64,000 nt of DNA from Candidatus Latescibacterota bacterium (GTDB lineage Bacteria; Latescibacterota; UBA2968; UBA8231). Numbering within the stretch: the stretch's first letter is position 1; each line of letters opens with the position of its first letter. Made by a program: the position numbers and the translations under genes. The stretch lies in contig OZ242005.1 in assembly GCA_965204725.1 (NCBI GenBank), positions 4,864,001-4,928,000 on the forward strand. The letters run 5' to 3'. Positions 5,761-28,723 of the stretch are shown piece by piece. Under the pieces are notes generated by a model. That model saw nothing but the letters and a program-made list of their open reading frames with translations. It was not told the origin of the DNA and searched no databases.

Positions 5761-6783
5761 ATGCCTACCATCCCCACGCGCTCTTTGCGCACCGGCGTTG
5801 AGTTGAGCACCCTCGGCTTTGGCGGTGCCCCTTTGGGCGAGCTTTTCGATCCGGTCAGCGAAACCCAAGCCCAAGACACCCTGCAAGCGGCTTGGGACGC
5901 CGGTATCCGCTACTACGACACCGCCCCGTTTTACGGCTATGGCAAAAGCGAGCACCGCCTCGGCCACTTTCTCCGCCAGCAGGAGCGCGGCGACTTCGTG
6001 CTCTCGACCAAGGTCGGCCGAGTGCTCACCGCCACCCGCAATCTCCATTCTTTCGAGCAGGGCTTCTGGATCGGCGGCCTGCCCTTTGACTTCCGCTTCG
6101 ACTACGGGTACGATGGCATCATGCGCTCGTGGGAAGACAGCTTGCAGCGGCTGAGCCTCAACTCCATTGACCTGCTGTTGATCCACGACCTCGACAGCTT
6201 CTTCCACGACAGCGAGCAGCGCTTCTCCGCCCACCTCAACCGCCTGATCACCAGCGGCTGGCGCGCCCTCGACGAGCTGCGCTCCCACGGGCTGATCAAG
6301 GCCGTTGGTGCTGGCCTCAACCGCATGGGGGCCATGCCGCGCCTGCTCGACGGGGTGGACCTCGACTTCTGCATCGTCGCCATGCCCTATACGCTCTTGG
6401 ACCAAGACTCTCTCGACGAGGAGTTTCCCCTCTGCGAGGAGCGCGACGTGCGCATCGTCATCGGCGCGGTTTTCGCTTCCGGCATCCTCGCCTCCGGCCC
6501 GGTCGAGGGTGCTCGCTACGCCTACGACACTGCGTCGCCCGAAATCCTCGCCAAGACTCGCCGCATCCAAGCCGTCTGCCAGCGGCACGATGTCCCCTTG
6601 CCGGCCGCGGCCATGCAGTTCCCGCTCGGGCACCCCCTCGTCGCGGCCATCATCCCCGGTGCCCTCGTCCCGGCGCATGTCGAGACCAATGCCCAGTGGT
6701 TTAAGCACACCATACCAACCGATCTGTGGGCCGAGCTAAAGGCCGAGGGATTGTTGCGGGCAGATGCCCCGACGCCGAACTAA
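5761..6783 (+). CDS. Aldo/keto reductase (D-threo-aldose dehydrogenase-like)
   Basis: LGFGGAPLG, YYDTAPFYGYGKSE, STKVGR and IDLLLIHD; start at ATG 5761 after AAGGAAG. Confidence 0.88.
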   Translation: MPTIPTRSLRTGVELSTLGFGGAPLGELFDPVSETQAQDTLQAAWDAGIRYYDTAPFYGYGKSEHRLGHFLRQQERGDFVLSTKVGRVLTATRNLHSFEQGFWIGGLPFDFRFDYGYDGIMRSWEDSLQRLSLNSIDLLLIHDLDSFFHDSEQRFSAHLNRLITSGWRALDELRSHGLIKAVGAGLNRMGAMPRLLDGVDLDFCIVAMPYTLLDQDSLDEEFPLCEERDVRIVIGAVFASGILASGPVEGARYAYDTASPEILAKTRRIQAVCQRHDVPLPAAAMQFPLGHPLVAAIIPGALVPAHVETNAQWFKHTIPTDLWAELKAEGLLRADAPTPN

Positions 6784-6793
6784 GAGGTTGAGC

Positions 6794-9700
6794 ATGAACC
6801 ATAAGCAGGTATTTGATCACATCCTCGGGCGGCACTACACGAACTTCGACGGGCTGGCCGGGATGCACGTGGAAGACATCTACCAAGACCGCCGCGGCCT
6901 GCTCTGGATCGCCACGGCCGACGGCGGCGTGGGCCGGTTCGACGGAGCGAATTTCGACATCTTTAGCCTCTCGAGAGGGGTTCCCCATATCACGGTAATG
7001 ACGATTGCTGAGGACCCAGACGGGCGAATGCTCTTCGGCACTCTCGGCGGCGGGCTAGCCGTATATGACGGGCAGGGGTTTCAGGTGCATACCACCGAGC
7101 ACGGGCTGCCGTCCAATGAGATCATGAGCCTGCAACCCCAAGCCGATGGCTCAATGCGGATGCTGACCGGCGCGGGGATAGGCCGGTTCGTCGATGGCCA
7201 GTGCGTAGAGTGCGTGACAGAAATTGCGGGGCAGCCGCTAGGCCCGGTGTACGACATGGCGACCGACGCGGCCGGTACGACGTGGTTGGCGACGCGGGAG
7301 CGCGGGGTTCTCAGCCTAGAGGGCCAGCCCCTGAGTGGGGACTTAGGCACGGGAAGCGGCGCGATGCAGTGGCCGTGGAAATTCGCCCAAGGCCCCTCCG
7401 GCCCTCTGTGGATCGCCTTTCGCTACACCGGTCGCAAACCCATTATCGGCTGCTATGATCCAGCGAGCAACCAGCTCGAACTCGTCGAGGTGGATGACCC
7501 AGCCGAGGAAGCCGAGATCGTCTGGCACGGTACGCGGCACGTGCGCGTCGATGATAGAGGCTTGCTGTGGATGACCTGCCGGGGCGTCTTGGTGTACGAC
7601 GGACGGGCTTGGCATCCATTCGCCACCGAGTTGCCGGATAGCCATTTTTCGGCGACGCGACTGACGTATGAAGACCGCGAGGGGAACATCTGGTTGGGGC
7701 TGTGGGGCGGCGGGCTGGTTTTTTGCGATCCGGTCAGCGTCCAGCTATACACCCAAGCCGATGGCCTGCCCGACAGCGAGGTCCAGTGTCTGAGCGAAGA
7801 CCGCGAAGGTCGGCTGTGGATCGGTACGATGGGGGGCTTGGCCTGCCGCCAAGACGACCGGATTCGCCCGGTAGATCCAAGGCGGGAGGTCTCAACGCTG
7901 GTGATTGACCAACAGGGGCAAGTCTGGAGCACAGGACCTGAGGGAGACATATTCAAGGCGACGGGTGGAGAGGCCGAGGCGATTGAGGGGGCCGAGACGA
8001 CCCTCACGGAAGGAATCGCGGGGCTGTGGGAAGACCAAGCAGGACGCCTAAACGTCTGCACTTCCGAGGGGCGATTGGGGCGGATCGAACAAGGTCGCTT
8101 TACGCCACTTGCGGAGCGGTTTCCCCGCGGTTGCACGGTCGTGTTACAGGATGGAGCAGGGACCCTCTGGGTCGGCCTCAGTAGGAAAGAGTCCGCGCTA
8201 TGCTATTATGAGGATGGTCGTTTCCACACGCCGACGGTGGCCGGCGTGAAAGACATCGGGAGTGTGAGTGCTTTGTGCGAGCACCAAGGCGCACTCTGGA
8301 TCGGGACGGAAAACTATGGCCTGTTCGCCTTGGACTACGCTTCCGAGGAGATCCGCCGGTTTACGGTGGATCAGGGGGGGCTGTCGGTCAATGGGATCTC
8401 GGCTCTGATGAGCGATCCGCAAGGCGATCTGTGGATTGGGACCAGCGGTGGGGGCGTCCTGAAGTACGACGGCCGGACCTTCCATACCATTCGGCTGGGA
8501 CAGGGCGCGTTGGAAAACATCGTCGAGGCCATTGTGCGCGACAGCCGGGGCCGGCTGTGGTTTGGGACGCGCAGGGGTCTCATTGCGTATCGGCCCGGGG
8601 AGACGCCGCCGCGCATCCTAATCCGCCAAGTCGTGGCCGGCCGAACTTGGGACGACCCCCAAGCCGTGTCCTGCCCAGACAGCACCCCCGAGATTCAGTT
8701 TCACTTCCAAGGCATCAGTTTCAGGAGTGGGGCCGGGCAGATGCGCTACAGCCACCGGCTCGTCGGCCCCGGCCGGGCCGAAGAGTGGAGCGCGTTCACG
8801 CCCGCCAATAAGGCGACGTACCGAGACGTGCCGGCCGGCCAGTTCCACTTTGAGGTGCGGACCACCGATCGGGATGGCTTGCTATCGGACATCGCCCGCC
8901 TAGAGGTTCGAGTGACCCCCTCTCCCCAGCGGCACATAGAGCACATGCTGCGGGCCTCGCATCAGGGTTTTATCAGCCAAAGTCCGGCCATGGCCGAGGT
9001 TCTCGAACGGGTCGACTCAATGGCCGAGGCGGACCTGCCGGTGCTGGTGCTGGGCGAGACCGGGGTTGGCAAGGGGGTGTTGGCGCGGCTTATCCACGAC
9101 CTTAGTCCGCGCCGAGCGAAACCCTTTATAGCGGTCAATTCCGGGGGCTTGTCCACCGGGGTGATACACAGCGAACTGTTTGGCCACGAAAAGGGGTCCT
9201 TTACCGACGCGCATGCCCAAAGAATCGGCTATTTTGAACGGGCTGATGGCGGCACCTTGTTCCTCGACGAGATAGGCGATTTGTCCGTAGAGTCCCAACA
9301 GCTCTTGCTCCACATCTTAGAGGATAAGAACCTGATGCGCCTCGGCGGCGGAAAGCCGATCCCGATAGATGTGCGGATTGTTGCTGCGACCAACAAGGAC
9401 CTCGAAGAGGCCATTCAGGCGGGCGTGTTCCGGGATGATCTGCTCTATCGGCTGAGGACATTATCAGTATTAGTACCGCCGCTGCGGGAGCGTCGGGAGG
9501 ATATCCCGCTCTTGGCGGCGTATTTTGCGAACCAGTGTGCCCAAACCCTAAAGCGGCCGGTGCCGACCTTAAGCGACGAAGTACTCGCGCACTTGCAGGA
9601 ATATCCTTGGCCGGGGAATGTGCGCGAATTGGCGCATCTGATACAGCAGGCGGTGGTGCTGGGCAAAGGGGATGTCATGCGGATAGAGGATGTACCGCTG

Positions 9701-9949
9701 ATGGCGGCCCCACCTGTTGAACAAGGCTCCGACGAGGGCACTGACGATGACGCCAAAAAGTGGGGATTCTTCGACGAGGATGCTAGAAATGAAGCCGAAA
9801 AGCAGCGAATTCTGAAGGCTCTCCAAACCACGAACTGGCGGGTCTCTGGCCCGCGGGGGGCGGCTCAGTTGTTGGAGATAAGCCCGGAGAAGCTGCGCTA
9901 TCGCATGCGTAAGTACGGGTTGAAACGGCCCGGGAAGGCGTCGCAGTAA
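6794..9949 (+). CDS. Sigma54-dependent activator: N-terminal Reg_prop beta-propeller and Y_Y_Y-like Ig domain, AAA+ domain, Fis-type HTH
   Basis: Repeated DxxGxLWIGT motifs; Walker A GETGVGK, ELFGHEKGSFTDA (GAFTGA variant), Walker B LFLDEIG, FRDDLLYRL, WPGNVREL; C-terminal NWRVSGPRGAAQLL..LRYRMRKYG. Confidence 0.92.
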   Translation: MNHKQVFDHILGRHYTNFDGLAGMHVEDIYQDRRGLLWIATADGGVGRFDGANFDIFSLSRGVPHITVMTIAEDPDGRMLFGTLGGGLAVYDGQGFQVHTTEHGLPSNEIMSLQPQADGSMRMLTGAGIGRFVDGQCVECVTEIAGQPLGPVYDMATDAAGTTWLATRERGVLSLEGQPLSGDLGTGSGAMQWPWKFAQGPSGPLWIAFRYTGRKPIIGCYDPASNQLELVEVDDPAEEAEIVWHGTRHVRVDDRGLLWMTCRGVLVYDGRAWHPFATELPDSHFSATRLTYEDREGNIWLGLWGGGLVFCDPVSVQLYTQADGLPDSEVQCLSEDREGRLWIGTMGGLACRQDDRIRPVDPRREVSTLVIDQQGQVWSTGPEGDIFKATGGEAEAIEGAETTLTEGIAGLWEDQAGRLNVCTSEGRLGRIEQGRFTPLAERFPRGCTVVLQDGAGTLWVGLSRKESALCYYEDGRFHTPTVAGVKDIGSVSALCEHQGALWIGTENYGLFALDYASEEIRRFTVDQGGLSVNGISALMSDPQGDLWIGTSGGGVLKYDGRTFHTIRLGQGALENIVEAIVRDSRGRLWFGTRRGLIAYRPGETPPRILIRQVVAGRTWDDPQAVSCPDSTPEIQFHFQGISFRSGAGQMRYSHRLVGPGRAEEWSAFTPANKATYRDVPAGQFHFEVRTTDRDGLLSDIARLEVRVTPSPQRHIEHMLRASHQGFISQSPAMAEVLERVDSMAEADLPVLVLGETGVGKGVLARLIHDLSPRRAKPFIAVNSGGLSTGVIHSELFGHEKGSFTDAHAQRIGYFERADGGTLFLDEIGDLSVESQQLLLHILEDKNLMRLGGGKPIPIDVRIVAATNKDLEEAIQAGVFRDDLLYRLRTLSVLVPPLRERREDIPLLAAYFANQCAQTLKRPVPTLSDEVLAHLQEYPWPGNVRELAHLIQQAVVLGKGDVMRIEDVPLMAAPPVEQGSDEGTDDDAKKWGFFDEDARNEAEKQRILKALQTTNWRVSGPRGAAQLLEISPEKLRYRMRKYGLKRPGKASQ

Positions 9950-10067: not shown

Positions 10068-10140
10068 TGTAAAAAGTTGTGCAAAAGTTGTGCAAAATCT
10101 GTTCACTTGCACAAGTTTTGCACAAGTTTTGCACAAAAAA
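10068..10140. promoter_or_regulatory. Putative enhancer (UAS) array for the sigma54 activator, copy 1
   Basis: AAAGTTGTGCA x2, then TGCACAAGTTT x2 plus TGCACAAAA; 11-bp period, near-inverted halves; about 130-200 bp upstream of a -24/-12 box; conserved at 23358-23425. Confidence 0.7.
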
Positions 10141-10217
10141 GTCGCAAATCAACTTGCGATGACGCCTCATGCTGGCCTCGTTGAGATTTTTTTTTGCTAT
10201 CCAACGTCTTGTTTTTC

Positions 10218-10249
10218 AATCCTTTAGGTATTCCTAAAGGATTTTTTTG
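10218..10249 (+). terminator. Hairpin plus T-tract (terminator or operator), overlapping an IHF-like site
   Basis: AATCCTTTAGG-TATT-CCTAAAGGATT followed by Ts; TTTCAATCCTTTA is one mismatch from WATCAANNNNTTR. Confidence 0.45.
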
Positions 10250-10266
10250 TGCCGGACCGGCATCTT

Positions 10267-10282
10267 TGGCACGAAATTTGCA
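10267..10282 (+). promoter_or_regulatory. Sigma54 (-24/-12) promoter, copy 1
   Basis: TGGCAC-GAAAT-TTGCA, exact consensus spacing, next to a bEBP gene. Confidence 0.9.
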
Positions 10283-10327
10283 ATAGTCTTTACAAGCGCA
10301 TTTCATCTACCATGAGGCGTAACGGAT

Positions 10328-11473
10328 ATGGAAGCCCTGCTCAACGATTTTGGCCGCGTGTTTTTGCTGGAGTTGGTTATGGCCTGCGCCATTACCATCT
10401 GCGGTTGCTATACAACCTATACCGATATTCACTTCCGCCATATCCCCCATTGGGCTAGTTGGGGACTGCTGGCCGTAGGTTTAATAGGCCAAGGTCTATT
10501 TTGGATTTGGGGTGCGGTCGAACTGGACCAAGCAGGCATCGTCTTGTTGGTCGGTTTTGTTGTTGGTTACGTACTCTATATCTACGGATTTTGGGCACCC
10601 GGCGACGCCAAGTTGTTTTGGGCTTTTGTCTTGGTGCTGCCGCCGACGTTCTTCCCCTCCACTTCCCTCTCCTCCTTTGACGCGCCGATTTGGGCGCTCC
10701 TGCTCAACGCCTTAGTGCTCACCTGTTTTGTCTTGCTGGCGCTGTGGGCGGTTTTGCGTCGGGGGCGGTCGGCGGAAGTCGAGGGGGATTGGGGGCCATC
10801 GCAATGGCTGTATCTAGGCTTGGAGTTGGCCGGCCTGATAGGGCTCGTGCTGGGGTTTGGCTCCTTCCTGCTGGCCGAGACGATGACCTTTGTAGAGGTC
10901 GTGGTCGCCATCTTGGTGCTCTATCTGCTCGTTGACCACTTCGTCCCCCAGAGTTACCGGCTGACCTTGGCCCTGCCCGGTCTTATCCTCGGCGGCTACA
11001 CGGCCCTGCAATCGGGAGAATGGCTGATCTATCTGGTGCTGTGGGTCCTCGCTTGGGGGGTGTTCTCCCTCTATAGCATCATCCGGCATCTAGTCCCTCG
11101 GCACTTCGTACAGGCGATTCCTATTCAGGCGTTGCGCGCCGGCATGGTGCCGCAGGTAGCGATCTACGCGGCGGATACCGGCGGAGCGGCGGAATACCGT
11201 TGTGGCGCAGAGGTTGGGCCGGGGCAAGATGTGCTGTGTTATCCTGGCCGGCCGTTGACCAAGGGGCAGGTGCGGACGTTGCACGAAAAATCGGCGGGCG
11301 GTGCTTTCGCGCCGTTTGGCCATGAGTTGGCAGTGGAACTGGCCGTCCCTTTCGCGCCGATAATCGCCGTCGCTGGGGTGCTGACCCTAGTCTTGGGCGG
11401 CAGTCTAATCAGACCCCTGATACAGTTGTTCTCTCCGTGGCTGCCGTCGCTTCAGCAGTTGTTGGTGGGGTAA
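10328..11473 (+). CDS. A24 family aspartic membrane peptidase (prepilin/preflagellin peptidase, FlaK-like)
   Basis: TDIHFRHIPHW (first Asp), APGDAKL (GxD-xK), multiple TMs, FlaK-like IPIQALRAGMVP segment and C-terminal VPFAPII. Confidence 0.8.
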   Translation: MEALLNDFGRVFLLELVMACAITICGCYTTYTDIHFRHIPHWASWGLLAVGLIGQGLFWIWGAVELDQAGIVLLVGFVVGYVLYIYGFWAPGDAKLFWAFVLVLPPTFFPSTSLSSFDAPIWALLLNALVLTCFVLLALWAVLRRGRSAEVEGDWGPSQWLYLGLELAGLIGLVLGFGSFLLAETMTFVEVVVAILVLYLLVDHFVPQSYRLTLALPGLILGGYTALQSGEWLIYLVLWVLAWGVFSLYSIIRHLVPRHFVQAIPIQALRAGMVPQVAIYAADTGGAAEYRCGAEVGPGQDVLCYPGRPLTKGQVRTLHEKSAGGAFAPFGHELAVELAVPFAPIIAVAGVLTLVLGGSLIRPLIQLFSPWLPSLQQLLVG

Positions 11474-11475
11474 TC

Positions 11476-12093
11476 ATGAACCGAGATAGAAAAGACCCTG
11501 TAACACTGGCCTTTGGCGTCCTGTTGGTCGCCTTGCTGCCAACCTTTTTCCTGTTGGTGAGCCACTACCCGTCGTTAGAGGAGCGCGTGCAACAGTTGAA
11601 GCCTAAGCCCTTGGTGCCCGCGCCTTCACTGGAGGATCTGTTGGCGCAAGTCAGCCAAGCCGTATCCGACAGTACGCTCCAACTCCAACAGGTATGGGCT
11701 GCCGAGCCGGAACCGACTTCTGGCCTAGTGGCCGACTACAAGGTCGTGCGCGGCGGCCTAGCGGTCTATCGGCTGGTTCTATTCCGCCACGACATCGCCT
11801 GTAGCGTGTGCCGGGACGTGTTGGCCGCCGCTCTGTACGATGGCGACTCACTGGTGCAGATCTTTCTGCTCGACGATTGGGAGGTGCGCGGCGAGCGGGT
11901 TGATACCGCACAGTTTTTGCGCCAATTCGCGGGTCGCCCGCTGGCAACCGAACTGGCTCTTGAGGCCAATGTCGATGGGATCAGCGGGGCCACGTTTTCA
12001 ACCGGGGGCCTCGTCGAACAGCTCAACACGGCGGCGGCGTGGGTGCGGGCGCATCCGCTGGAGCCGCCGGCAAGCGAGGGAGAAAACCTGTGA
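11476..12093 (+). CDS. Membrane-anchored FMN-binding domain protein with CxxC
   Basis: N-terminal TM; VDGISGATFST flavinylation-type motif; HDIACSVCRD. Confidence 0.75.
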   Translation: MNRDRKDPVTLAFGVLLVALLPTFFLLVSHYPSLEERVQQLKPKPLVPAPSLEDLLAQVSQAVSDSTLQLQQVWAAEPEPTSGLVADYKVVRGGLAVYRLVLFRHDIACSVCRDVLAAALYDGDSLVQIFLLDDWEVRGERVDTAQFLRQFAGRPLATELALEANVDGISGATFSTGGLVEQLNTAAAWVRAHPLEPPASEGENL

Positions 12094-12629
12094 ACGCTCT
12101 CAGACCCAATCGCTGGGCTACGACCTTGATCGTGGCTACGGGCCTCCTGTTGGGAGCCTGTGTATTCCTAGCGGCCAAGATCGTCAATCCTCCGCCGATT
12201 GATCGGCTCGATGTGGCGTTTTGGGATTTGCTGGGTACGCAAGCGGCTATCCTCGAATTAGAGAGCCTGACGGGCACAGACAAGGTTTCCAACGCGCAGT
12301 TTGCGGGCGAGCCCTATCTGCTCATTTTCGCCGACCCGACTTGCAGTGCCTGCGAGGCCATTTATCCCCACTTGCTGCGCGCCTCGCAAGTGCAGGGCGT
12401 GAATGTCCTGTTCATTGCCTCGGGCGACCGGCAGGCGATGCAAGACAAAGTGGAGGAACACAGTTTTGCATTCCCGGTCGCCTTTGATTCCCTGTTGACG
12501 GCCAATAAGCCCTTTGAGGTGGGTGCTTTTCCCGCCTCTGTACTGGTGGATGCCGAAGGCAACATTGCCAAAGCCGCTACCGGCGATCAGGGTGCTGTCG
12601 CCGTAATACGCTTGGCTGGTAGTTCCTGA
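12090..12629 (+). CDS. Membrane-anchored thioredoxin-fold protein (TlpA/AhpC-TSA/MauD-like)
   Basis: GTG start overlapping the upstream TGA; N-terminal TM; FADPTCSAC; FPVAFD; GAFPASVLVDAEG. Confidence 0.8.
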   Translation: MNALRPNRWATTLIVATGLLLGACVFLAAKIVNPPPIDRLDVAFWDLLGTQAAILELESLTGTDKVSNAQFAGEPYLLIFADPTCSACEAIYPHLLRASQVQGVNVLFIASGDRQAMQDKVEEHSFAFPVAFDSLLTANKPFEVGAFPASVLVDAEGNIAKAATGDQGAVAVIRLAGSS

Positions 12630-12644
12630 AAGGATGGATGCGCC

Positions 12645-13349
12645 ATGTACGTTGTAACTCTCTTGCGTCGTCCGGTGGTGTGGACGGTGGTGGCCAGCGT
12701 CGCGGTCGTGGTCTTTTTGGCCTTGCGTCCCTCTTCGTCGGCCCTCTCGCCGGTGGTGTGGACCGAGCCCTCGGCTAATCCGCTGGCCGAGGTGCTGCGG
12801 CCGGGGGATACCGCGCCGGACTTCGCGCTGCCGGCGGTACAGGGCGGCACGGTCGCCTTGAGTGCGTTGCGGGGAAAGCCCGCTTTGCTGGCCTTTGTTA
12901 CGGCGGAGTGTCCGTATTGTCAGAAGCTATACAAGCAACTCGAAGCCTTTGAACTGAATGCGGACCAACAACTCGTATTCATCTGCCCAAGCGAGGAGGG
13001 TGCTCGGAAAATCAGCGAGACCTATTCCTTTACGTATCCGGTGTTGATCGACTCGGCTGGGGCGATTTCACAGGCGTACAAAACCCCTGGGGTGCCTGCG
13101 GTGTATCGGGTCGGCCCCGAGGGGAAGATTGTGGATTTGGCGGTGGGATGGCCGACGGCTTGGACGTTTGTTCGGGGTTTTGGCCGCCTCCAGCTTAGCG
13201 AAGGCTCTGAAGGTTATTCGTTTAATGGCTCAATCATCATGCTGGCCCAGAAAGGAGGTGCATCCCGTGCTCGTAGGTTTGATGCTCGTCAGCAACCACA
13301 ACGGTTTGCTGATCCTTTTTCCAATTACTCAAGGAGAATTGCGTTATGA
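12645..13349 (+). CDS. Membrane-anchored thioredoxin-fold protein (TlpA/ResA-like)
   Basis: GDTAPDFALP, LSALRGKPALLAF, CPYC, YPVLID, GVPAVY; the last ~45 aa look like read-through of intergenic DNA and the stop overlaps the next ATG. Confidence 0.82.
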   Translation: MYVVTLLRRPVVWTVVASVAVVVFLALRPSSSALSPVVWTEPSANPLAEVLRPGDTAPDFALPAVQGGTVALSALRGKPALLAFVTAECPYCQKLYKQLEAFELNADQQLVFICPSEEGARKISETYSFTYPVLIDSAGAISQAYKTPGVPAVYRVGPEGKIVDLAVGWPTAWTFVRGFGRLQLSEGSEGYSFNGSIIMLAQKGGASRARRFDARQQPQRFADPFSNYSRRIAL

Positions 13350-13687
13350 AATCTCTACTTTTGTTCTTGCAGGCGGTGCTGGTGCTGCCGCTGGTGGCTC
13401 CGCTGGTGGAGTTCGCCACGTCAACCAGCGGGCACGTTGAGCCGCGTGAGGGGTTGGCGCTGGGCTGGCTGGGCAGCGTGGTGGCGGGGCTGGCGGTGGT
13501 GTTCGGCACGGCCGACCAGACCCAGGCCGATTCCTGCTACGGAATCTCGGAGGGAAGCAAGGGATCGTACACAACGTCGGATCCATGCGAGTGGAGGGAC
13601 CATAAACCCTTCAGGTATTGGGTGAATTATTATCGCCACTACGAAGGGGGACCGGGCTGTGTCTATCTGTATTCTGTATGCGTATAG
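13346..13687 (+). CDS. Cys-rich peptide precursor A1 (leader plus 4-Cys core)
   Basis: AAGGAG RBS; leader ..SGHVEPREGLALGWLGSVVAGLAVVFGTADQTQA; core C-x16-C-x23-C-x6-C; five paralogs in the window. Confidence 0.85.
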   Translation: MKSLLLFLQAVLVLPLVAPLVEFATSTSGHVEPREGLALGWLGSVVAGLAVVFGTADQTQADSCYGISEGSKGSYTTSDPCEWRDHKPFRYWVNYYRHYEGGPGCVYLYSVCV

Positions 13688-13798
13688 CCCGGTCGCCCAG
13701 TAGCCCCGTCGCTACGGCTCCCGGCTGTATCTATCAGCGTTTTGCATGCGGTCAGGTGAGCTCCTGTGACGTTATACGGTAGTTGCCAAGACGACGCG

Positions 13799-13833
13799 CC
13801 CCTGTGGTACTTTCGGGCCAAGTACCACAGGGG
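13799..13833 (+). promoter_or_regulatory. Perfect 14-bp stem-loop between peptide and FG-GAP genes (copy 1)
   Basis: CCCCTGTGGTACTT-TCGGGCC-AAGTACCACAGGGG; no U-tract. Confidence 0.7.
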
Positions 13834-13895
13834 TAGGCGTCCTTATGTCGCTCAGAACATCCTAAAACAAATCTATCACGCTTTGGAGGTTCGTT

Positions 13896-16034
13896 ATGCG
13901 CGGTTTGCTCGTTGCGATTGGATTGGTGGTGGCTCCATTTAAGGTCTTGGCTTTAACATGGGATTTTGACGCGGGCACGACTTGGGGATGGGCAGCCCAA
14001 GAGAGCGCCTTCGGCTCAGACCATGGTACGACCACGGTGTACAGCGAAGTCGCAGATGGCGTCTGGCGCATTGCGCCGGTGCCGCACGGGAAAAGACCAG
14101 CCATTCGCTTGCTCTCGCCGCTGATTGGGGAAGACTCTGACCTGTTCGACTGGGTCACCCTACGGCTACGCATCATCCACGATCTCCCCACCGAGGGGGT
14201 CCTTGAAATGTCGTGGTCCAATGTCGAGTACAGACGCCGCAAGAAGGAAGAACCCAGCGTAGGGTTGGGATTTTTTGTAAGCCGTCCTCAAGTTTATTCC
14301 ACCGAATGGGAAGACATCACCATAGATATACGGGCTTTGGAAGCGGCTCCAGCAGGAGAGATCGATTGGGAGGTCACTTGGGAGGACACTCTCTTCCACT
14401 TCTTCTTAGACCTAGACTTATTGCATCTACACGACATACAAGAATCCAGCTTAAGCCCGGCGGCTCGTCCGACCTTTGTCGAAGTCGATTGGATTCAACT
14501 GACGGGTGCTGAAGAGTTGCTGCTGGGGGAGTTGCAGCCTCGGGCGAGCATCGTGGAGGCCGGGTTGCCTGGGACGTTGTTTGCGGAACCGCGTTTTTCG
14601 GTGTTGGGTCGAAATATCGGTAACCCAGGATCGCATGGTACTTTGGGCGATGTGGATGGCGATGGGGATGCCGATCTGGTCGTGAAATGGGAGGAAATAA
14701 TGGCGAGCGATGGCTGGTCCATAGCGACCAGCGATGGCTTGGGGAGCTTGGTCCCTACCCAAGAGGTCCTCCTCCCACAGGAGGCTTATTCGATTCCGAT
14801 GATTACGGGAGGCGATTTCGACGGGGATGGGCTTCTCGATCTGGCCTTTAGTACCGGTCGAACTATCGAATTGTGGCTCAACCGGGGCGAGGATGGATTT
14901 GAAACCATCCTACAGCTATCCGATAGCTATTTCATCGGTCTAGCCGATGGCGACGGCGATGGCGATGTGGACCTGTTGGCGGTAGAAGACCGCGACGACC
15001 TATGGTCTAACTTGACTATGTGGATCAACGATGGCGCGGGCGGGTTTGCCCACAGCGATCGGTTCGTCCTCGACACCGAAGAAGAGCTCGGTCGTTTCCT
15101 GCTGGCAGGGCAACCGGAGGGCGAGGCCGTGCGTGTGCTGTGGATCCGACCCTGCTGGAAGCCGCAGGGGCCGTGGCGGCTGACCCAGCCATGGGCGGCA
15201 AACGAGGAGCCACCGCTGTTTTTTGAGCTTGGGGAGGTCAACCCCTGCGACATGGACCTGCTGGCCGATCTGGATGGGGATGGAGCGGTAGAGTTAGTCG
15301 GAACGCCCGAGCGGAACCTGTTCCCGGGCTTTTCTCGGGGCAACACCCATCACGGTTTAGCCCTGTGGCGCGTGAACCCTTCGGGCGGAGTGGAACGCCA
15401 CACCCTGCTCGGTCCGCAGGTGATCGTGCCGTATTCGTGGCCTAAAAGTGGGGTCATTGCCAGCGACCTGACCGGCGATGGCCTTTTGGACTTGGCCGTA
15501 ATCAATACCAACTTAGCGATGAATCCGGCCCTGATTGTCTTGGTTGGCCAGCGCGATGGCCTGCCCGTCGTCGAAGGGCACTACCCCCTGCCCACCATCG
15601 GCCGCAGCCTGCTCGCAGGCGACGTCAACGGCGATGGGGCGACCGATCTGGTCGTGCTGGGGCGGAGTCAGCGCGGCGACGGCGGAGCCTTCGTCTTCCT
15701 CAACCAAGGCGTTCCCGCCACTGCCATCGCCGCCGAGACGACGACCATGCCTACGACCTTTGCCCTCGGTGCCAACTATCCCAACCCGTTCAACCCGGCC
15801 ACGACCATTCCCGTGTCGGTGGCGGTGGGTGCGGGCGAGGTCGATTTAACCATCTATAACGTCTTGGGGCAGCCGGTGCGCCGCGTGTGGGCGGGTTCGT
15901 TGGCGGCGGGCGAACACCGGCTGGCTTGGGATGGCCGGGACACGCAGGGGCAACCCGTTGCCGCTGGAGTCTATTTGTATCGGTTGCAGGTGGGCGACCA
16001 GACGCGCATTCGCAAGATGGTCAAAATTGAGTAG
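13896..16034 (+). CDS. Secreted FG-GAP/VCBS repeat protein F1 with N-terminal jelly-roll-like domain and C-terminal FlgD/T9SS-type tail
   Basis: Signal peptide; repeated GDxDGDGxxDL motifs; NYPNPFNPATTI..WDGRD..GVYLYRL..RKMVKIE. Confidence 0.88.
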   Translation: MRGLLVAIGLVVAPFKVLALTWDFDAGTTWGWAAQESAFGSDHGTTTVYSEVADGVWRIAPVPHGKRPAIRLLSPLIGEDSDLFDWVTLRLRIIHDLPTEGVLEMSWSNVEYRRRKKEEPSVGLGFFVSRPQVYSTEWEDITIDIRALEAAPAGEIDWEVTWEDTLFHFFLDLDLLHLHDIQESSLSPAARPTFVEVDWIQLTGAEELLLGELQPRASIVEAGLPGTLFAEPRFSVLGRNIGNPGSHGTLGDVDGDGDADLVVKWEEIMASDGWSIATSDGLGSLVPTQEVLLPQEAYSIPMITGGDFDGDGLLDLAFSTGRTIELWLNRGEDGFETILQLSDSYFIGLADGDGDGDVDLLAVEDRDDLWSNLTMWINDGAGGFAHSDRFVLDTEEELGRFLLAGQPEGEAVRVLWIRPCWKPQGPWRLTQPWAANEEPPLFFELGEVNPCDMDLLADLDGDGAVELVGTPERNLFPGFSRGNTHHGLALWRVNPSGGVERHTLLGPQVIVPYSWPKSGVIASDLTGDGLLDLAVINTNLAMNPALIVLVGQRDGLPVVEGHYPLPTIGRSLLAGDVNGDGATDLVVLGRSQRGDGGAFVFLNQGVPATAIAAETTTMPTTFALGANYPNPFNPATTIPVSVAVGAGEVDLTIYNVLGQPVRRVWAGSLAAGEHRLAWDGRDTQGQPVAAGVYLYRLQVGDQTRIRKMVKIE

Positions 16035-16177
16035 GGTGAAGGCTCTTGAGCCATGGACTCAATCGCGGCTACGGGCCAGAAAGGAGGTTCTATCTCGTGC
16101 ATGTAGGTTTGCTGGTCATTCGGCAACCAAGACGGTTTGCTGATTCTTTCTTCTACCCTTTTGAGGAGGATTGAGTT

Positions 16178-16510
16178 ATGAAGTCTTTGCCTTTGTTCTT
16201 GCAGTCGGTGCTGATGCTGCCGCTGGTGGAGTTCGCCACGTCAACCAGCGGGCACGTCGAGCCGCGTGAGGGTTTGGCGCTGGGCTGGCTGGGCAGCGTG
16301 GTGGCGGGGCTGGCGGTGGTGTTCAGCACGGCCGACCAGACCCAGGCCGATTCCTGCTACGGAATCGCGGAGGAAAGCATTGGATATAACCAAACGGGTC
16401 TCCCATGTGCCTGGAAAGACGATGAACCCTCCAAGTATTGGAGGGATTATTATTATCACCATTCTGGGAAGCCGGGCTGTGTCTATCTGTATTCTGCATG
16501 CAGCGTATAG
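16178..16510 (+). CDS. Cys-rich peptide precursor A2
   Basis: GAGGAGG RBS; same leader as A1; divergent core with identical Cys spacing. Confidence 0.85.
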   Translation: MKSLPLFLQSVLMLPLVEFATSTSGHVEPREGLALGWLGSVVAGLAVVFSTADQTQADSCYGIAEESIGYNQTGLPCAWKDDEPSKYWRDYYYHHSGKPGCVYLYSACSV

Positions 16511-16620
16511 CACGGTCGTCAAGTTGCCCCGTCGCTGGATTCCCGGCTGTATCTATCAGCGTTCTACATGCGGCTAGGTGAGCTTCTGTAACGGCATACG
16601 GCAGTTGCCAAGACGACGCG

Positions 16621-16655
16621 CCCCTGTGGTACTTTCGGGCCAAGTACCACAGGGG
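16621..16655 (+). promoter_or_regulatory. Perfect 14-bp stem-loop (copy 2)
   Basis: Identical to 13799-13833. Confidence 0.7.
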
Positions 16656-16721
16656 TTGGCGTCCTTATGTCGCTTGAATAGAACATCCTAAAACAAATCT
16701 ATCACGCTCTGGAGGTTCGTT

Positions 16722-18851: not shown

Positions 18852-18905
18852 GGAGCGGACATGCTGGAGATGTGCGCCAACCCGAGAAGAAAAGGACATA
18901 AGACG

Positions 18906-20243
18906 ATGAGACGACCATGGAAAGTACCGTTGCAAAAAAATAGAAAGCTGCAAAGCTGCCTAGTGTTGTCGCTGGCCTTGCATCTGCTGGTGATCTTCGG
19001 CCTCACGCACCGCGAGCAGGTTGCCCAATTTCCCGTCCTGTCGCCGATCATGGTGGAGTTTACCAAGCACCCGCCGCCGCAGCGCACCCTCACCCGCCGC
19101 CAACGACCCCGGCAGCGGCCGTTGGCGCGGCGACCCGCCCTGCAAGCAGCCCCAGTCGCCGCGGTGCGCCCGGCCCCCACGGCGACACGTCCCCTGCCGA
19201 TGTTCAAGTCGGCGGCACTTAGGCTGCCGACAGCGGCCCTGCCGGATCGGCTGGTACTACCTGTGCCGGACTTCCCCGCTCGGCACATTGGTCCGCAAAT
19301 GCAGGCTGGGGCATTGGAAGGGACGCGGCAAGGGGCCGACGAGATTGACTTGGCCTTGGAACTGATGGATGTGCAGGCCATGGACACCGGCCAGCACCGG
19401 GCGATAGTGGTCGTCGATCCAAAAGACCGGCGTCAACTCAAGGGATTCCTCTATATGTCTGGAATCTACAGCCCCTCCATTGAACAGGCTGACAGTGAAC
19501 ATCACGGATACAGACCAAGTAGTTGGTGGCACCAGATGCCGCGCCGATTGGCGGAACGGCGGATTTTGCAAGGGTTGGCCGATGAGATGACCACCAAGAC
19601 ACAGGTTCAGGTTGAAGTGCGCGACGCGGTCCGACTCGACGATCCGCAGCTTTTGCAAATCCCCTTCGTGCTGTTGACCATCGATACCCTCTTTGAGTTT
19701 ACGGACAGTGAGGCGGCCAACCTCGGGGCGTATTTAACTTCGGGTGGCTTCTTGTCTGTGGATATTGGGAGCTTTTTGCAGGACAATTACAGCGACGACG
19801 AATTGGACATTCCGGCGGCGCGTTCTCTCATTCGCGCCAGCTTTCAAGCGGTGGGTTATCAAGAATGGAAGGATTGGCAGTTCAAGCGCCTAGCGATAAC
19901 GCATCCGATCTATCATTGCTTCTACGATATAAACAGTCTGCCACGTGGGATGCGCGATATGCACTTTCTAAACAGAGAATCTCCACCGCCAACTCCAGAC
20001 TATTTGGAGGGTATCGTAGTAGGTGAGCAGTTAGTGGGGGTGTACTCGATGCGTGGCTACGCCGATTTCTGGGCGGGAATCGCTAGGCAGGAGCTAGACC
20101 ATGCTTTGGAGTATAACTCACCCAGCAACTGGTTTCTGGCCAGTGCCGAGGAGCCGATGGTGTATAACTTGGGCGTGAACTTCTTGGTGTATGCGTTGAC
20201 ACGCGAGGGCTCATTGGCCCAACAATTAGTCGATGCGGGCTGA
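18906..20243 (+). CDS. DUF4159-like protein with N-terminal TM and Pro/Arg-rich linker (copy a)
   Basis: TonB-like anchor SLALHLLVIF; NLGAYLTSGGFL, HPIYHCFYDI, YLEGI and LGVNFLVYALT; start could also be 18861. Confidence 0.72.
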   Translation: MRRPWKVPLQKNRKLQSCLVLSLALHLLVIFGLTHREQVAQFPVLSPIMVEFTKHPPPQRTLTRRQRPRQRPLARRPALQAAPVAAVRPAPTATRPLPMFKSAALRLPTAALPDRLVLPVPDFPARHIGPQMQAGALEGTRQGADEIDLALELMDVQAMDTGQHRAIVVVDPKDRRQLKGFLYMSGIYSPSIEQADSEHHGYRPSSWWHQMPRRLAERRILQGLADEMTTKTQVQVEVRDAVRLDDPQLLQIPFVLLTIDTLFEFTDSEAANLGAYLTSGGFLSVDIGSFLQDNYSDDELDIPAARSLIRASFQAVGYQEWKDWQFKRLAITHPIYHCFYDINSLPRGMRDMHFLNRESPPPTPDYLEGIVVGEQLVGVYSMRGYADFWAGIARQELDHALEYNSPSNWFLASAEEPMVYNLGVNFLVYALTREGSLAQQLVDAG

Positions 20244-20297
20244 GGGCTATCAGAACAAACTTTGTGGGTCCTTTTTCTACCCTTTAAGGAGGAATGA

Positions 20298-20978
20298 ATG
20301 ATGCAGTCTTTAATGTTTGTTTTTAAGGCTCTCGCCCCGTCGTCGAGCGGGCACGTAGAGCCACGTCAGGTGCTGAGGTGGCTGAGCAACATGGGGGCGG
20401 GGCTGGCGGTGGTGTTCAGCACGGCCGACCAGACGCCGGCCGATACCTGCTTTGGGATCGCAGAAGGAAGCAGAGGGTATCACACAACGACGATTCCATG
20501 CGACCGGCAAGACCCTAAACTCGCCGAGTACTGGGAGGATCATTATTCCCACGATTCTGAGACGCCGGCCGATAGCTCTCGGCAGGATCATTATTTACAC
20601 CATCGTGGAAATCCGGGATGTGTTTATCTGACTTCTACCTGTGGCCCAAGTACGGCCACGGCCACCGCCATCGAGTCCGAGACGGTGATCACCCCCTCAG
20701 CCTTTGTCCTCGGTGCGAACTACCCCAACCCATTCAATCCGGCCACGACTATCCCCCTTACCGTACCCGCCGGAGCCGAGGAGGTCGATTTAACCATCTA
20801 TAACGTCTTGGGGCAGCCCGTGCGCCGCGTGTGGGCAGGTTCGTTGGCAGCGGGCGAACACCGGCTAGCTTGGGAAGGCCAAGACGCACAGGGCCAACCC
20901 GTTGCCGCTGGAGTCTATTTGTATCGGTTGCAGGTGGGCGACCAGACGCGCATCCGCAAGATGGTCAAAATCGAGTAG
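20298..20978 (+). CDS. Cys-rich peptide precursor A3 fused to FlgD-type tail
   Basis: AAGGAGG RBS; SGHVEPRQ leader; CFGIAEGS..PC..YW..PGCVYLTSTC core; NYPNPFNP tail. Confidence 0.85.
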   Translation: MMQSLMFVFKALAPSSSGHVEPRQVLRWLSNMGAGLAVVFSTADQTPADTCFGIAEGSRGYHTTTIPCDRQDPKLAEYWEDHYSHDSETPADSSRQDHYLHHRGNPGCVYLTSTCGPSTATATAIESETVITPSAFVLGANYPNPFNPATTIPLTVPAGAEEVDLTIYNVLGQPVRRVWAGSLAAGEHRLAWEGQDAQGQPVAAGVYLYRLQVGDQTRIRKMVKIE

Positions 20979-21047
20979 GGCGAAGGCTCTTGAGCCATGC
21001 ACTACAATCGCGGCTACGGCCAGAACGGTCTTTTTTGCATATCAGGC

Positions 21048-21101
21048 GTCATTCCCGCAAAAGAACGTCACCCCGTGCCCCGATATGGGGCGGGAATCCA
21101 G
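21048..21101. repeat. REP-like element, long form (inverted)
   Basis: GTCATTCCCGC...CCCCGTGCCCCGATATGGGGCGGGAATCCAG. Confidence 0.65.
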
Positions 21102-21128
21102 TCTTGAAGGAGGAGGGCACTACGAGAT

Positions 21129-22490: not shown

Positions 22491-23168
22491 ATGCAGTCTT
22501 TAACGTTTGTTTTTAAGGCTCTCGCCCCGTCGTCGAGCGGGCACGTAGAGCCGCGTCAGGGCTTGGTGCTGAGGTGGCTGGGCAGCATGGGGGCGGGGCT
22601 GGCGGTGGTGTTCAGCACGGCCGACCAGACGCCGGCCGATACCTGCTTTGGGATCGCAGAAGGAAGCAGAGGGTATCACACAACGACGATTCCGTGCGAC
22701 CGGCAAGACCCTAAACTCGCCGAGTACTGGCAGGATCATTATTCTCACGATTCTGAGACGCCGGCCGATAGCTCTCGGCAGGACCATTATTTTCATGATC
22801 CTGGAAATCCGGGATGTGTTTATCTGACTTCTACCTGTGGCCCAAGTCCGGCCACCGCTGTCGAGGCCGAGGCGGCGATCTCCCCCTCCACTTTTGTCCT
22901 CGGTGCGAACTACCCCAACCCATTCAATCCGGCCACGACTATCCCCCTTACCGTGCCCGCCGGAGCCGAGGAGGTTGATTTAACTATCTACAATGTCTTG
23001 GGGCAGCCGGTGTACCACGTTTGGAACGGTCCGTTGGCAGCGGGCGAACACCGACTGGCTTGGGAAGGCCAAGACGCACAGGGCCAACCCGTCGCTGCTG
23101 GAGTCTATTTGTATCGGTTGCAGATGGGCGACCAGACGCGCATTCGCAAGATGGTCAAAATCGAATAG
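22491..23168 (+). CDS. Cys-rich peptide precursor A4 fused to FlgD-type tail
   Basis: Near copy of A3 with leader EPRQGLVLRWLGS. Confidence 0.85.
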   Translation: MQSLTFVFKALAPSSSGHVEPRQGLVLRWLGSMGAGLAVVFSTADQTPADTCFGIAEGSRGYHTTTIPCDRQDPKLAEYWQDHYSHDSETPADSSRQDHYFHDPGNPGCVYLTSTCGPSPATAVEAEAAISPSTFVLGANYPNPFNPATTIPLTVPAGAEEVDLTIYNVLGQPVYHVWNGPLAAGEHRLAWEGQDAQGQPVAAGVYLYRLQMGDQTRIRKMVKIE

Positions 23169-23357: not shown

Positions 23358-23425
23358 TGTAAAAAGTTGTGCAAAAGTTGTGCAAAATTTGTTCAGTTGC
23401 ACAAGTTTTGAACAAGTTTTGCACA
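23358..23425. promoter_or_regulatory. Putative enhancer (UAS) array, copy 2
   Basis: Near-identical to 10068-10140. Confidence 0.7.
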
Positions 23426-23556
23426 GAAAATCGCCGATCAACTTGCGACGACGCCTCATGTCAGCCCCGTAGAGAATTTTTTTTCGCTATCCAACACCTT
23501 GTTTTTCAATCCTTTAGGGAATCCTAAAGGATTTTTTTGTCCCGGATCGGCATTGT

Positions 23557-23572
23557 TGGCACGAAAATTGCA
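23557..23572 (+). promoter_or_regulatory. Sigma54 (-24/-12) promoter, copy 2
   Basis: TGGCAC-GAAAA-TTGCA. Confidence 0.9.
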
Positions 23573-23600
23573 ATAGTATTTGTAGAGAGGCGTAACGGAT

Positions 23601-23768
23601 ATGGAAGCCCTACTCAACGATTGCTTTGGGGGTCATTCGTTTAATGGCTCAATCATCATGCTGGCCCAGAAAGGAGGTGCATCCCGTGCTCGTAGGTTTG
23701 ATGCTCGTCAGCAACCACAACGGTTTGCTGATCCTTTTTCCAATTACTCAAGGAGAATTGCGTTATGA
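23601..23768 (+). pseudogene. 55-aa deletion-fusion ORF: A24 peptidase start joined in frame to the thioredoxin tail
   Basis: MEALLND (as at 10328) + CFGGH + SFNGSIIMLAQKGG..SRRIAL (as at the end of 12645-13349); TGA overlaps the ATG at 23765. Confidence 0.7.
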
Positions 23769-24106
23769 AATCTCTACTTTTGTTCTTGCAGGCGGTGCTG
23801 GTGCTGCCGCTGGTGGCTCCGCTGGTGGAGTTCGCCACGTCAACCAGCGGGCATGTTGAGCCGCGTGAGGGCTTGGCGCTGGGCTGGCTGGGCAGCGTGG
23901 TGGCGGGGCTGGCGGTGGTGTTCGGCACGGCCGACCAGACCCAAGCTGATTCCTGCTACGGAATCTCGGAGGGAAGCAAGGGATCGTACACAACGTCGGA
24001 TCCATGCGAGTGGAGGGACCATAAACCCTTCAGGTATTGGGTGAATTATTATCGCCACTACGAAGGGGGACCGGGCTGTGTCTATCTGTATTCTGTATGC
24101 GTATAG
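23765..24106 (+). CDS. Cys-rich peptide precursor A5 (protein identical to A1)
   Basis: Identical 113-aa translation; four synonymous differences seen by eye. Confidence 0.87.
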   Translation: MKSLLLFLQAVLVLPLVAPLVEFATSTSGHVEPREGLALGWLGSVVAGLAVVFGTADQTQADSCYGISEGSKGSYTTSDPCEWRDHKPFRYWVNYYRHYEGGPGCVYLYSVCV

Positions 24107-27880: not shown

Positions 27881-28723
27881 ATGCAGTCTTTAACGTTTGT
27901 TTTTAAGGCCCTCGCCACGTCAGGGCTTGGCCCTCGGTTGGCGGGGCTGGCGGTGATGTTCGGCACCGTCAGCCAGACCCAGGCCGATCCCTGCTTTGGA
28001 ATCGCGGGGGAAAGCCATGGCTCGCACGAAACGACGTATCCATGCGAGTGGCGAGACCATGAACCCGTCGAGTATTGGTGGGAGCATTACTTCCACTATT
28101 CTAGAACGCCGGCCGATAGCTCTGGGCAAACTCCGGGATGTGTTTATCTGTATGCTACCTGTGGCCCAAGTACGACCACCATCGCGGCCGCGACGCCGAC
28201 CGATACTTGCTTTGGAATCGCAGAGGGAAGCAGAGGATCTTACACAACGCCGTATCCATGCGAGTGGCAAGACAATAAACCCGCCGAGTATTGGTGGGAT
28301 CATTATTTCCACTATTCTGAGACGTCGGCCGATAGCTCTGGGCAAACTCTGAGTTGTGCTTATCTGAATTCTACCTGTGGCCCAAGTACGGCTGGCCCAA
28401 GTGCGGCCACCGCCATTGCGGCCGAGACAGCGACCACTCCCTCAATCTTTGTCCTCGGTGCGAACTACCCCAACCCATTCAATCCGGCCACGACTATCCC
28501 CTTGGCGCTGCCCGCCGGAGCCGAGGAGGTTGATTTAACCATTTACAATGTCTTGGGTCAGCCGGTGCGCCGAGTGTGGGCGGGTTCGTTGGCGGCGGGC
28601 GAGCATCGGCTGGCTTGGGATGGCCAAGACGCACAGGGCCAACCCGTCGCTGCTGGAGTCTATTTGTATCGGTTGCAGGTCGGCGACCAGACGCGCATTC
28701 GCAAGATGGTCAAAATCGAATAA
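27881..28723 (+). CDS. Cys-rich peptide precursor A6 with two tandem cores, fused to FlgD-type tail
   Basis: Shortened leader ..LAGLAVMFGTVSQTQA; two CFGIA..PCEW..YWW.HYFHYS..C.YL..TC units; NYPNPFNP tail. Confidence 0.85.
   Translation: MQSLTFVFKALATSGLGPRLAGLAVMFGTVSQTQADPCFGIAGESHGSHETTYPCEWRDHEPVEYWWEHYFHYSRTPADSSGQTPGCVYLYATCGPSTTTIAAATPTDTCFGIAEGSRGSYTTPYPCEWQDNKPAEYWWDHYFHYSETSADSSGQTLSCAYLNSTCGPSTAGPSAATAIAAETATTPSIFVLGANYPNPFNPATTIPLALPAGAEEVDLTIYNVLGQPVRRVWAGSLAAGEHRLAWDGQDAQGQPVAAGVYLYRLQVGDQTRIRKMVKIE

Follow-up and report, generated by a model that had tools for sequence, protein, structure and literature searches.

A FlaK-like A24 peptidase without a pilus system and a linked family of cysteine-rich precursors in a Candidatus Latescibacterota genome

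The class III signal peptidase is one of the four core parts of all type IV filament systems (PMC4471445, PMC13705601). Class III signals are described as having a leader of 6-26 residues (PMC4471445). Substrates other than pilins are found in the bindosome of Sulfolobus, in which sugar-binding proteins carry class III signals and undergo processing by the class III peptidase (PMC4471445, PMC13705601). The bindosome still needs a filament base, formed by the Bas ATPase and a platform protein. We have analyzed a stretch of 64,000 nucleotides from a Candidatus Latescibacterota genome (assembly GCA_965204725.1, contig OZ242005.1, positions 4,864,001 to 4,928,000; hereafter the window, whose own positions are used throughout) that contains a gene for a FlaK-like A24 peptidase at 10328-11473, and we found no such filament base here. 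The preliminary description of the window had proposed that this enzyme was repurposed to process a set of small precursors encoded downstream. This proposal is backed by comparison, through the conservation of a Gly at the predicted cut, the co-occurrence of enzyme and precursors (in 22 of the 27 genomes that contain one or the other) and their adjacency. We hold with moderate confidence that the gene codes for a dedicated class-III-type leader peptidase that would serve a family of secreted Cys-rich precursors and work without any pilus.

An A24 peptidase in a genome without filament machinery

The gene on which the analysis is centred is the following:

10328..11473, forward strand: FlaK-like A24/GxGD aspartyl peptidase of 381 amino acids (aa), with D33 and D93, about 10 transmembrane helices and a soluble domain spanning roughly residues 256-340

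Its product is a divergent but real FlaK-like GxGD (A24) aspartyl peptidase and looks intact. The Pfam family Peptidase_A24 matched residues 21-134 marginally (E 6.7e-6), and an NCBIfam scan of the protein gave no matches. A word-indexed search provided 64 relatives, 39 of which were aligned. Two Asp residues were invariant in the alignments of 16 and 39 homologues, D33 (in YTDIHF) and D93 (in GFWAPGDAKLF), the latter within APGDAK, a G-x-G-D-x-K-like motif, and a C-terminal P-F-A-P was almost invariant. Peptidase_A24 was matched by all 39 homologues (best E 5.1e-10) and Arc_PepC, the C-terminal domain of archaeal A24 enzymes, by 11 of them, the window protein itself having no match to the latter. 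The AlphaFold2 (AF2) model of the enzyme (pLDDT, the predicted local distance difference test, 81.3; pTM, the predicted template modelling score, 0.74) contains about ten helices and the small soluble domain.

In the structural comparison with about 48,000 PDB representatives, the top match was FlaK (3s0x_B, 156 of 186 residues aligned with a root mean square deviation, rmsd, of 3.2) with a Z of 12.6, a value to be read with care since, for helical bundles, a Z below about 13 may come from a shared arrangement alone; the runner-up had a Z of only 7.4. This limit counts against the assignment, as do the Pfam score, which barely exceeds its cut-off (26.9 against 26.5 bits), and the position of FlaK in Foldseek (rank 42, E 2.0). 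Foldseek gave nothing at E <= 0.001 with the peptidase model, and a PDB sequence search with the clade profile gave no matches at E <= 1. In spite of the weak Pfam score we consider the A24 assignment sound, because the two Asp are invariant, every aligned homologue matches the family and FlaK is the top structural match. The identification made before, of a FlaK-like A24 peptidase with both catalytic Asp motifs, stands.

Compared with the FlaK/PibD-type enzymes (A24B, GxGD), the window protein shares the two Asp, the second one in a G-x-G-D-like motif, and the soluble domain inserted before the last helix. As in those enzymes, the zinc-finger/methyltransferase N-terminal domain of PilD type, with its CxxC...CxxC, is absent, the A24 domain already beginning at residue 21. 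It differs from them in being bacterial, about 150-200 residues longer and provided with some four extra helices, in the lack of an ATPase, a platform protein and an archaellin or pilin partner in its genome, and in its putative substrates, whose leaders are long and conserved and whose +5 residue is Trp instead of Glu. With the PilD/TadV enzymes of type IV pili, type II secretion systems and Tad it shares the Pfam family and the proposed cut after Gly at the cytoplasmic end of a helix. However, the genes of the window clade adjoin precursors, whereas the PilD-type genes of the phylum often share a contig with a match to T2SSE, the assembly ATPase. The positive-inside rule, applied to the model's loops, would place the two Asp together with the soluble domain in the cytoplasm, as in the known A24 enzymes.

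We have searched the whole host assembly (5.43 Mb in 2 contigs, 94% complete) in six frames with family profiles. There is exactly one Peptidase_A24 match, that of 10328-11473. T2SSE gave no matches in this genome, in a search whose control matched 13 of 14 genomes. There were also none genome-wide to T2SSF, the polytopic platform protein, to the N_methyl and Flp_Fap pilins (at E up to 0.1) or to Secretin, for which the control genomes were matched as expected. The lack of pilin, assembly ATPase and secretin genes, described at first for the 64 kb, holds for the entire genome at its 94% completeness. A separate pilus locus without a peptidase of its own, which would have spoken against the proposed role, was looked for in the same way and gave no filament-component matches. 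The peptidase would thus belong to no type IV filament system of this genome. The genome also encodes one signal peptidase I gene, an SprA-like type IX translocon and rpoN.

The same separation appears across the phylum. Some A24 match was present in 43 of the 151 genomes sampled, 19 with short frames and 24 with the long clade to which the window enzyme belongs. The short frames (253-297 aa) had strong scores, and the seven that were fetched are PilD-type, with CxxC...CxxC, GMGDVKL and IPFGPF. A T2SSE match was found in 18 of the 19 short-A24 genomes, often on the same contig, and in 4 of the 24 long-clade genomes (one strong and three weak, E 1e-26 to 1e-30), the other 20 having none. A quick maximum-likelihood tree, in which long branches were flagged, parts the seven PilD-type rows from the 39 long-clade rows by a branch with an SH-aLRT of 100.

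The strong T2SSE match (E 5.7e-137) is in G127, a genome of the same genus whose sole A24 match is the long-clade peptidase. Either a PilD gene is missing from the assembly of this genome or the long-clade peptidase works for a filament system there as well. The weak matches, in G149, G140 and G147, are full-length ones to the T2SSE family in frames of 445-475 aa; in G149 the match is about 36 kb from the peptidase.

Cysteine-rich precursors and their conserved leader

A leader-profile search found nine members in the genome, and a tenth with a wider profile. Six are in the window (A1-A6), three are dispersed small genes (D1-D3) and one is a form fused to a type IX tail. Those of the window, in which several carry a C-terminal domain of the type IX secretion system (T9SS), are the following:

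13346..13687, forward strand: precursor A1, 113 aa; leader ...EFATSTSGHVEPREG followed by LALGW..., then TQA, then a 4-Cys domain
16178..16510, forward strand: precursor A2, 110 aa; EPR(E/Q)G leader; modelled with AF2
20298..20978, forward strand: precursor A3 fused to a T9SS C-terminal domain; Gly lost via a 2-residue deletion
22491..23168, forward strand: precursor A4, with a T9SS C-terminal domain fused to it and an intact motif, EPRQG then LVLRW
23765..24106, forward strand: precursor A5; protein sequence identical to A1
27881..28723, forward strand: precursor A6, two Cys-rich repeats and a T9SS C-terminal domain; leader motif deleted

Reading the translations confirmed what had been described for these genes: EPR(E/Q)G and then a hydrophobic stretch in A1, A2, A4 and A5, an A3 without the Gly (Val is at -1 after the deletion) and an A6 without the motif. 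The long N-termini of the precursors are real because AAGGAGG is found 6-8 nucleotides (nt) ahead of the upstream ATG in all six A genes. The same observation rules out that translation begins at a GTG immediately ahead of the helix and yields a plain signal peptide. A Tat signal was ruled out as well, there being no twin-Arg motif.

The leader consensus is F-x2-S-x-S-G-x6-G, followed by L/F-x-L/V-G/A-W, about 19-20 uncharged residues and mostly A-x-A, and in most precursors the first Cys comes 0-4 residues past A-x-A. We fetched 37 related loci, mostly from Candidatus Latescibacterota records and two from Candidatus Poribacteria. In an alignment of 35 leader rows, which omits window A3, window A6, the frame L022:8499 (with Arg for Gly) and near-duplicate rows, the columns that never varied were S, S, G and the Gly that precedes the helix. 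The omitted three do enter the count of 55 distinct leader-bearing frames (this genome and the related loci), 52 of which keep the S-x-S-G/D-x6 spacing. Among these 52 leaders, position -1 was Gly in 50, the exceptions being window A3 and the Arg frame.

An exhaustive profile search over 1.84 billion representatives gave 139 clusters at E <= 0.001, mostly of 75-125 residues. Position -1 was Gly in 118 of them, Ala in 8, Ser in 4, another residue in 4 and a gap in 5, a count that is not independent of the query since the leader profile favours the motif that is being counted. The residues F (-13), S (-10), S (-8) and G (-7) were each kept in 116-129 clusters. We read 31 members from 9 clusters, and the sole named one was called 'hypothetical protein'. 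The preliminary description had pointed to the conservation of the Gly across homologous loci as informative, and in both samples the residue is kept in the large majority.

The absence of Glu at +5, also noted before, was borne out: this position was occupied by Trp in 43/52 leaders and 106/139 clusters, and Glu was never seen. In class III signals Gly-1 is critical for processing, while Glu5 is dispensable for processing and needed for assembly (PMC4471445). The missing Glu would therefore be no obstacle to cutting, and a family that has the Gly and lacks Glu5 fits a picture of proteins that might be processed but not polymerised.

The Gly is at residue 16-57 of the leaders, the short type (20 aa) fitting the class III length, and the uncharged run that follows it has a median of 19-20 residues, to be compared with some 21 mostly hydrophobic ones in class III signals. 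A-x-A was found after the helix in 39/50 and 89/111 sequences by a simple pattern count, with no trained predictor. In the AF2 model of A2, a helix (34-51) starts right after the Gly and is followed by a linker and a three-stranded beta domain (67-109). The leaders of window A1 and A2 (32-36 aa) include a hydrophobic helix in the model. Foldseek gave nothing significant with the precursor model, and the ESM Atlas gave no usable match with A2. Three rows corresponding to the bacteriocin laterosporulin (TMt 0.42-0.47, rmsd 3.6-4.9, E >1) were non-significant and can be taken as a lead only.

The part downstream of the helix is much more variable than the leader. The number of Cys in the small members was mostly even, being 8 in 22 of them, 6 in 6, 10 in 6, 4 in 4, 12 in 1, 7 in 2 and 0 in 1. 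Within loci, the mean identity over 24 pairs of paralogues was 74% in the leader, 77% in the helix and 38% in the mature part. Near-identical leaders in front of hypervariable Cys-rich parts resemble, by analogy, toxin or ligand families under diversifying selection. In the window (13346-28723) precursors are paired in tandem with genes coding for FG-GAP proteins with a type IX tail; three such pairs are found in L014 and four in L030.

The precursors had also been described as possible highly divergent pilin-like subunits, that is, true pilins assembled by an unrecognised machine into a filament or surface array. A leader that ends in Gly and is followed by a helix of about 20 residues is indeed class-III-like, and Flp pilins are similarly small. 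In addition, archaeal pilins often lack Glu5 (PMC4471445). The genome, however, has no match to T2SSE, T2SSF, Secretin, N_methyl or Flp, the components by which every type IV filament system is defined (PMC4471445, PMC13705601). In the model, an 18-residue helix is followed by a linker and then by a beta domain of its own, unlike the long alpha-1 helix of a pilin, which is packed on the head. Besides, cutting at A-x-A would remove the helix, the cargo part is hypervariable, and type IX sorting domains are attached to some of the copies. We consider this explanation very improbable.

Linkage of peptidase and precursors and the alternatives for its role

We have compared the gene neighbourhoods of the peptidase in the related loci. 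A module coding for an FMN_bind-like protein, the A24 enzyme and two thioredoxins recurs together with precursors in loci L012-L039. With FG-GAP genes included it spans two peptidase clades, at about 80% and 40% identity, and in the more distant loci the precursor comes directly after the peptidase. The leader types follow the peptidase clades, HVEPRxG-LALGW in the first, LAPxRQG-LGLGW in the second and EVSxxQG-FPVAW in the third, with the exception of the window genome, where the first two types are both present with a single peptidase. For 29 of 33 full-length peptidase genes a leader gene was found within 6 kb on the same contig (coordinates read by hand), and in 14/33 cases it was less than 500 nt downstream of the peptidase.

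Among the 151 genomes of the phylum, the peptidase clade was present in 24 and the leader in 25. Both occurred in 22 genomes, 2 had only the peptidase, 3 only the leader and 124 neither of them. As the genomes are related by descent, these counts overstate independence, and they are to be read as a description of the pattern and not as a statistical test. Peptidase clade and leader are confined to the same 6 of 46 genera. In the two genomes with the peptidase alone, the gene immediately downstream codes for a divergent Cys-rich precursor in which Ala stands in place of the Gly. Of the three with the leader alone, one is 75% complete and two (G121 and G124) are single-contig complete genomes. 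Of the five leader copies in these two, one retains the motif and the other four have degenerated (SFGG, a 42-aa stump, and leaders that are shortened or have no start).

From these patterns we infer the following pathway. The precursor would be placed in the membrane so that its N-terminus is cytoplasmic and its C-terminus lies outside. The peptidase, whose D33 and D93 would lie where two of its helices end on the cytoplasmic side, would cleave behind the Gly, at the end of the precursor helix that faces the cytoplasm. On the outer face, cleavage after A-x-A by signal peptidase I would free the Cys-rich domain. Since A-x-A follows the helix, the mature N-terminus is probably the product of signal peptidase I instead of the A24 enzyme. 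The membrane-anchored ResA-like thioredoxins and the FMN_bind-like protein would then fold the Cys-rich domain oxidatively, the cargo being probably freed by signal peptidase I and folded by this redox module. The forms with a C-terminal sorting domain would leave through the type IX system, and the adjacent sigma-54 activator would switch on the entire gene set.

In addition to the limits already given for the Gly and co-occurrence counts, several observations weigh against this reading. Leaders of 16-57 residues exceed the 6-26 of class III signals, and some of them are hydrophobic. The paralogues A3, without the Gly, and A6, without the motif, persist in the window. A-x-A together with the one signal peptidase I gene would suffice for export, an A24 cut being not obviously needed. 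Finally, the complete genomes G121 and G124 keep leader-bearing genes in the absence of any A24 match, indicating that such genes can persist without the enzyme.

The helix followed by A-x-A looks like a class I signal peptide, and the precursors could be ordinary Sec substrates with a long n-region, with the peptidase acting elsewhere in the cluster. Its targets would be the FG-GAP proteins (MRG-LLVAIGLVV) or the anchors of the thioredoxins or the FMN_bind-like protein, all of which are also conserved in the loci, the thioredoxins accompanying the peptidase even in the smallest ones. We find this unlikely. The N-termini of the FMN_bind-like protein and of the two thioredoxins have no Gly-plus-helix motif conserved across clades, and these anchors were rejected as substrates. 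In L034, L038, L039, L052 and L053 the peptidase is followed directly by a precursor and there is no FG-GAP match. There is no known reason for an n-region to keep an invariant S-x-S-G-x6-G, and the degeneration of four of the five leader copies in the two complete peptidase-free genomes also argues against it. The FG-GAP N-termini had been put forward as alternative substrates, which now seems improbable: MRGLLVAIGLVV...LALTWDF reads as an ordinary signal peptide, and in the one starting with MNQKG-YF the stretch after the Gly, YFRVISPASVVKH, is not hydrophobic.

A different order of events would involve the same substrates and the same site as the pathway proposed above. Eukaryotic signal peptide peptidase and presenilin are GxGD intramembrane aspartyl proteases, and signal peptide peptidase acts after signal peptidase. 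In a similar way, the A24 enzyme could act after signal peptidase I and cut the leftover signal peptide at the Gly, either for membrane clearance or for the release of the conserved 16-57-residue N-terminal piece into the cytoplasm, possibly as a signal. A helix flanked by the Gly site and A-x-A would allow such an action, although orientation and substrates differ from the eukaryotic case and the likeness is an analogy only. Several features agree with this order: the A-x-A after the helix with the first Cys 0-4 residues later in most sequences, the presence of a signal peptidase I gene, the conservation of the cytoplasmic leader well past the Gly (F -13, S -10, S -8, G -7), suggestive of a bound partner, a propeller sensor in place of a receiver domain in the adjacent activator, and the membership of signal peptide peptidase itself among the GxGD proteases. 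On the other hand, we know of no bacterial A24 enzyme that acts like signal peptide peptidase. We regard this role as the leading alternative, possible but doubtful, and a dedicated leader peptidase as the better account of the locus.

The operon, its neighbours and the reach of the system

The peptidase had been described as the first gene of an operon, and the promoter found upstream agrees with this. The control elements and the neighbouring genes are the following:

6764..9949, forward strand: sigma-54 enhancer-binding protein, 1061 aa; Sigma54_activat 4.3e-61, Reg_prop 2.7e-40, Y_Y_Y, AAA+ and HTH_8
10078..10136, forward strand: TGCACAA-N4-TGCACAA repeats, candidate upstream activator site read from the sequence
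10267-10282, forward strand: sigma-54 promoter TGGCACGAAATTTGCA, 45 nt before the peptidase ATG
11437..12093, forward strand: membrane-anchored FMN_bind-like protein; FMN_bind at 18.9 bits, under the cut-off of 22; RnfG-like below threshold
12039..12629, forward strand: membrane-anchored ResA/TlpA-like thioredoxin (CSAC); AhpC-TSA 4e-9, Redoxin; ResA and MauD below threshold
12645..13349, forward strand: second membrane-anchored ResA-like thioredoxin (CPYC); AhpC-TSA 1.9e-17
13896..16034, forward strand: FG-GAP propeller protein with a T9SS C-terminal domain, from domain matches
23365..23625, forward strand: duplicate of the operon promoter region including the first peptidase codons, with its own sigma-54 promoter at 23557-23572
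28733-31231, forward strand: cytoplasmic fusion of a GT1-type (macrolide-type) glycosyltransferase and a transglutaminase-like domain, kept in related loci
31233-32309, forward strand: GT2 glycosyltransferase, kept in related loci

The sigma-54 promoter pattern has 2 matches in the window against 0.04 expected, and the TGCACAA-N4-TGCACAA pattern occurs in the genome here and in the duplicated copy only. A related enhancer-binding protein is found upstream in 15 mapped loci, and that of 6764..9949 is likely the activator of the peptidase operon. In this protein a Reg_prop/Y_Y_Y propeller replaces the receiver domain, and its first 60 residues have, by eye, no N-terminal signal or anchor. A speculative and quite unlikely extension is that the N-terminal leader peptide (F-x2-S-x-S-G...), freed into the cytoplasm by the A24 enzyme, reports the secretion flux to this propeller and that the hypervariable, disulfide-rich cargo, freed outside by signal peptidase I, is possibly defensin- or bacteriocin-like. 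An enzyme of the prepilin peptidase family would then be employed in signalling, independently of type IV filaments.

The same sigma-54 promoter is found ahead of the operon, of A5 and of the dispersed precursors D1 and D2, indicating shared control. At 23365-23768 the duplicated upstream repeats, the promoter and the first peptidase codons are joined to the 3' end of a copy of the second thioredoxin, supplying A5 and the genes after it with a sigma-54 promoter of their own. This arrangement suggests that the region was duplicated in tandem and then lost the genes from peptidase to thioredoxin. Elsewhere in the genome (G000:C1:2106894-2184260) seven more sigma-54 promoter matches are clustered, three of them being identical TGGCACGATAATTGCA. 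The tenth, tail-fused precursor (C1:2177913-2178713, minus strand) is among them, and the region may be a second regulon locus.

The FMN_bind-like gene, kept beside the peptidase in related loci, likely starts at the ATG at 11476, immediately after the peptidase stop. Beyond A1 there are repeated precursor and FG-GAP/type-IX-tail genes, a DUF4159 gene, a TPR gene, the GT1-transglutaminase fusion and the GT2 gene. The FG-GAP paralogues (16722-18851, 24319-26454 and 34264-36426) are each located after a precursor gene or within the same cluster. The GT1-transglutaminase fusion and GT2 are conserved in most related loci at 38-87% identity. As to the distribution of the region, part of 10200-16600 is present in 20 public runs from 8 studies, none of them on record as RNA, and four runs labelled sponge metagenome contain 0.61-0.69 of its sampled words.

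Other known systems offer partial parallels. PEP-CTERM/exosortase and GlyGly-CTERM/rhombosortase are dedicated pairs of sorting signal and protease, in which, as proposed here, one membrane protease deals with many paralogous substrates that share a short signal beside a helix. In our case, however, the signal is N-terminal and the protease is an A24 enzyme. Glycocin-type clusters contain a precursor, thioredoxins and a glycosyltransferase, and the likeness is in the co-encoded genes for thiol-disulfide oxidoreductases and glycosyltransferases. The contrast between leader (74%) and core (38%) mean identity and these same co-encoded genes might suggest a cluster like those of ribosomally synthesized and post-translationally modified peptides (RiPPs). 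In a literature search, whose coverage excluded most subscription journals, we came upon no account of either a pilus-free A24 system or the precursors described here.

A more distant peptidase homologue was found in a Candidatus Poribacteria record (L040:7748-14175). It is 28% identical and matches both Peptidase_A24 and Arc_PepC. Its neighbours are one gene of transglutaminase-like type, two of radical-SAM/SPASM type and an 83-aa open reading frame, rich in Trp and His, whose N-terminus, ...EEGSTGKQNALKAG then AVIGG, has a similar pattern of STG-x7-G and then a hydrophobic stretch. Judged from its gene content, this locus may be a RiPP-type cluster with the same kind of peptidase, and it hints that the clade might serve peptide-maturation clusters more widely.

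A whole clade of A24 enzymes stands without the other three core parts of the type IV filament systems, and it is tied to a putative substrate family of its own instead. The clade is present in 24 of the 151 sampled genomes of one phylum and has relatives in a second one. The co-localised peptidase and precursors point to a new job for the A24 family. If the predicted cut takes place, a new N-terminal signal for sorting or maturation would be defined, the range of meanings of an 'orphan' A24 gene in a genome would become broader, and a large set of hypervariable Cys-rich secreted peptides would become easier to approach.

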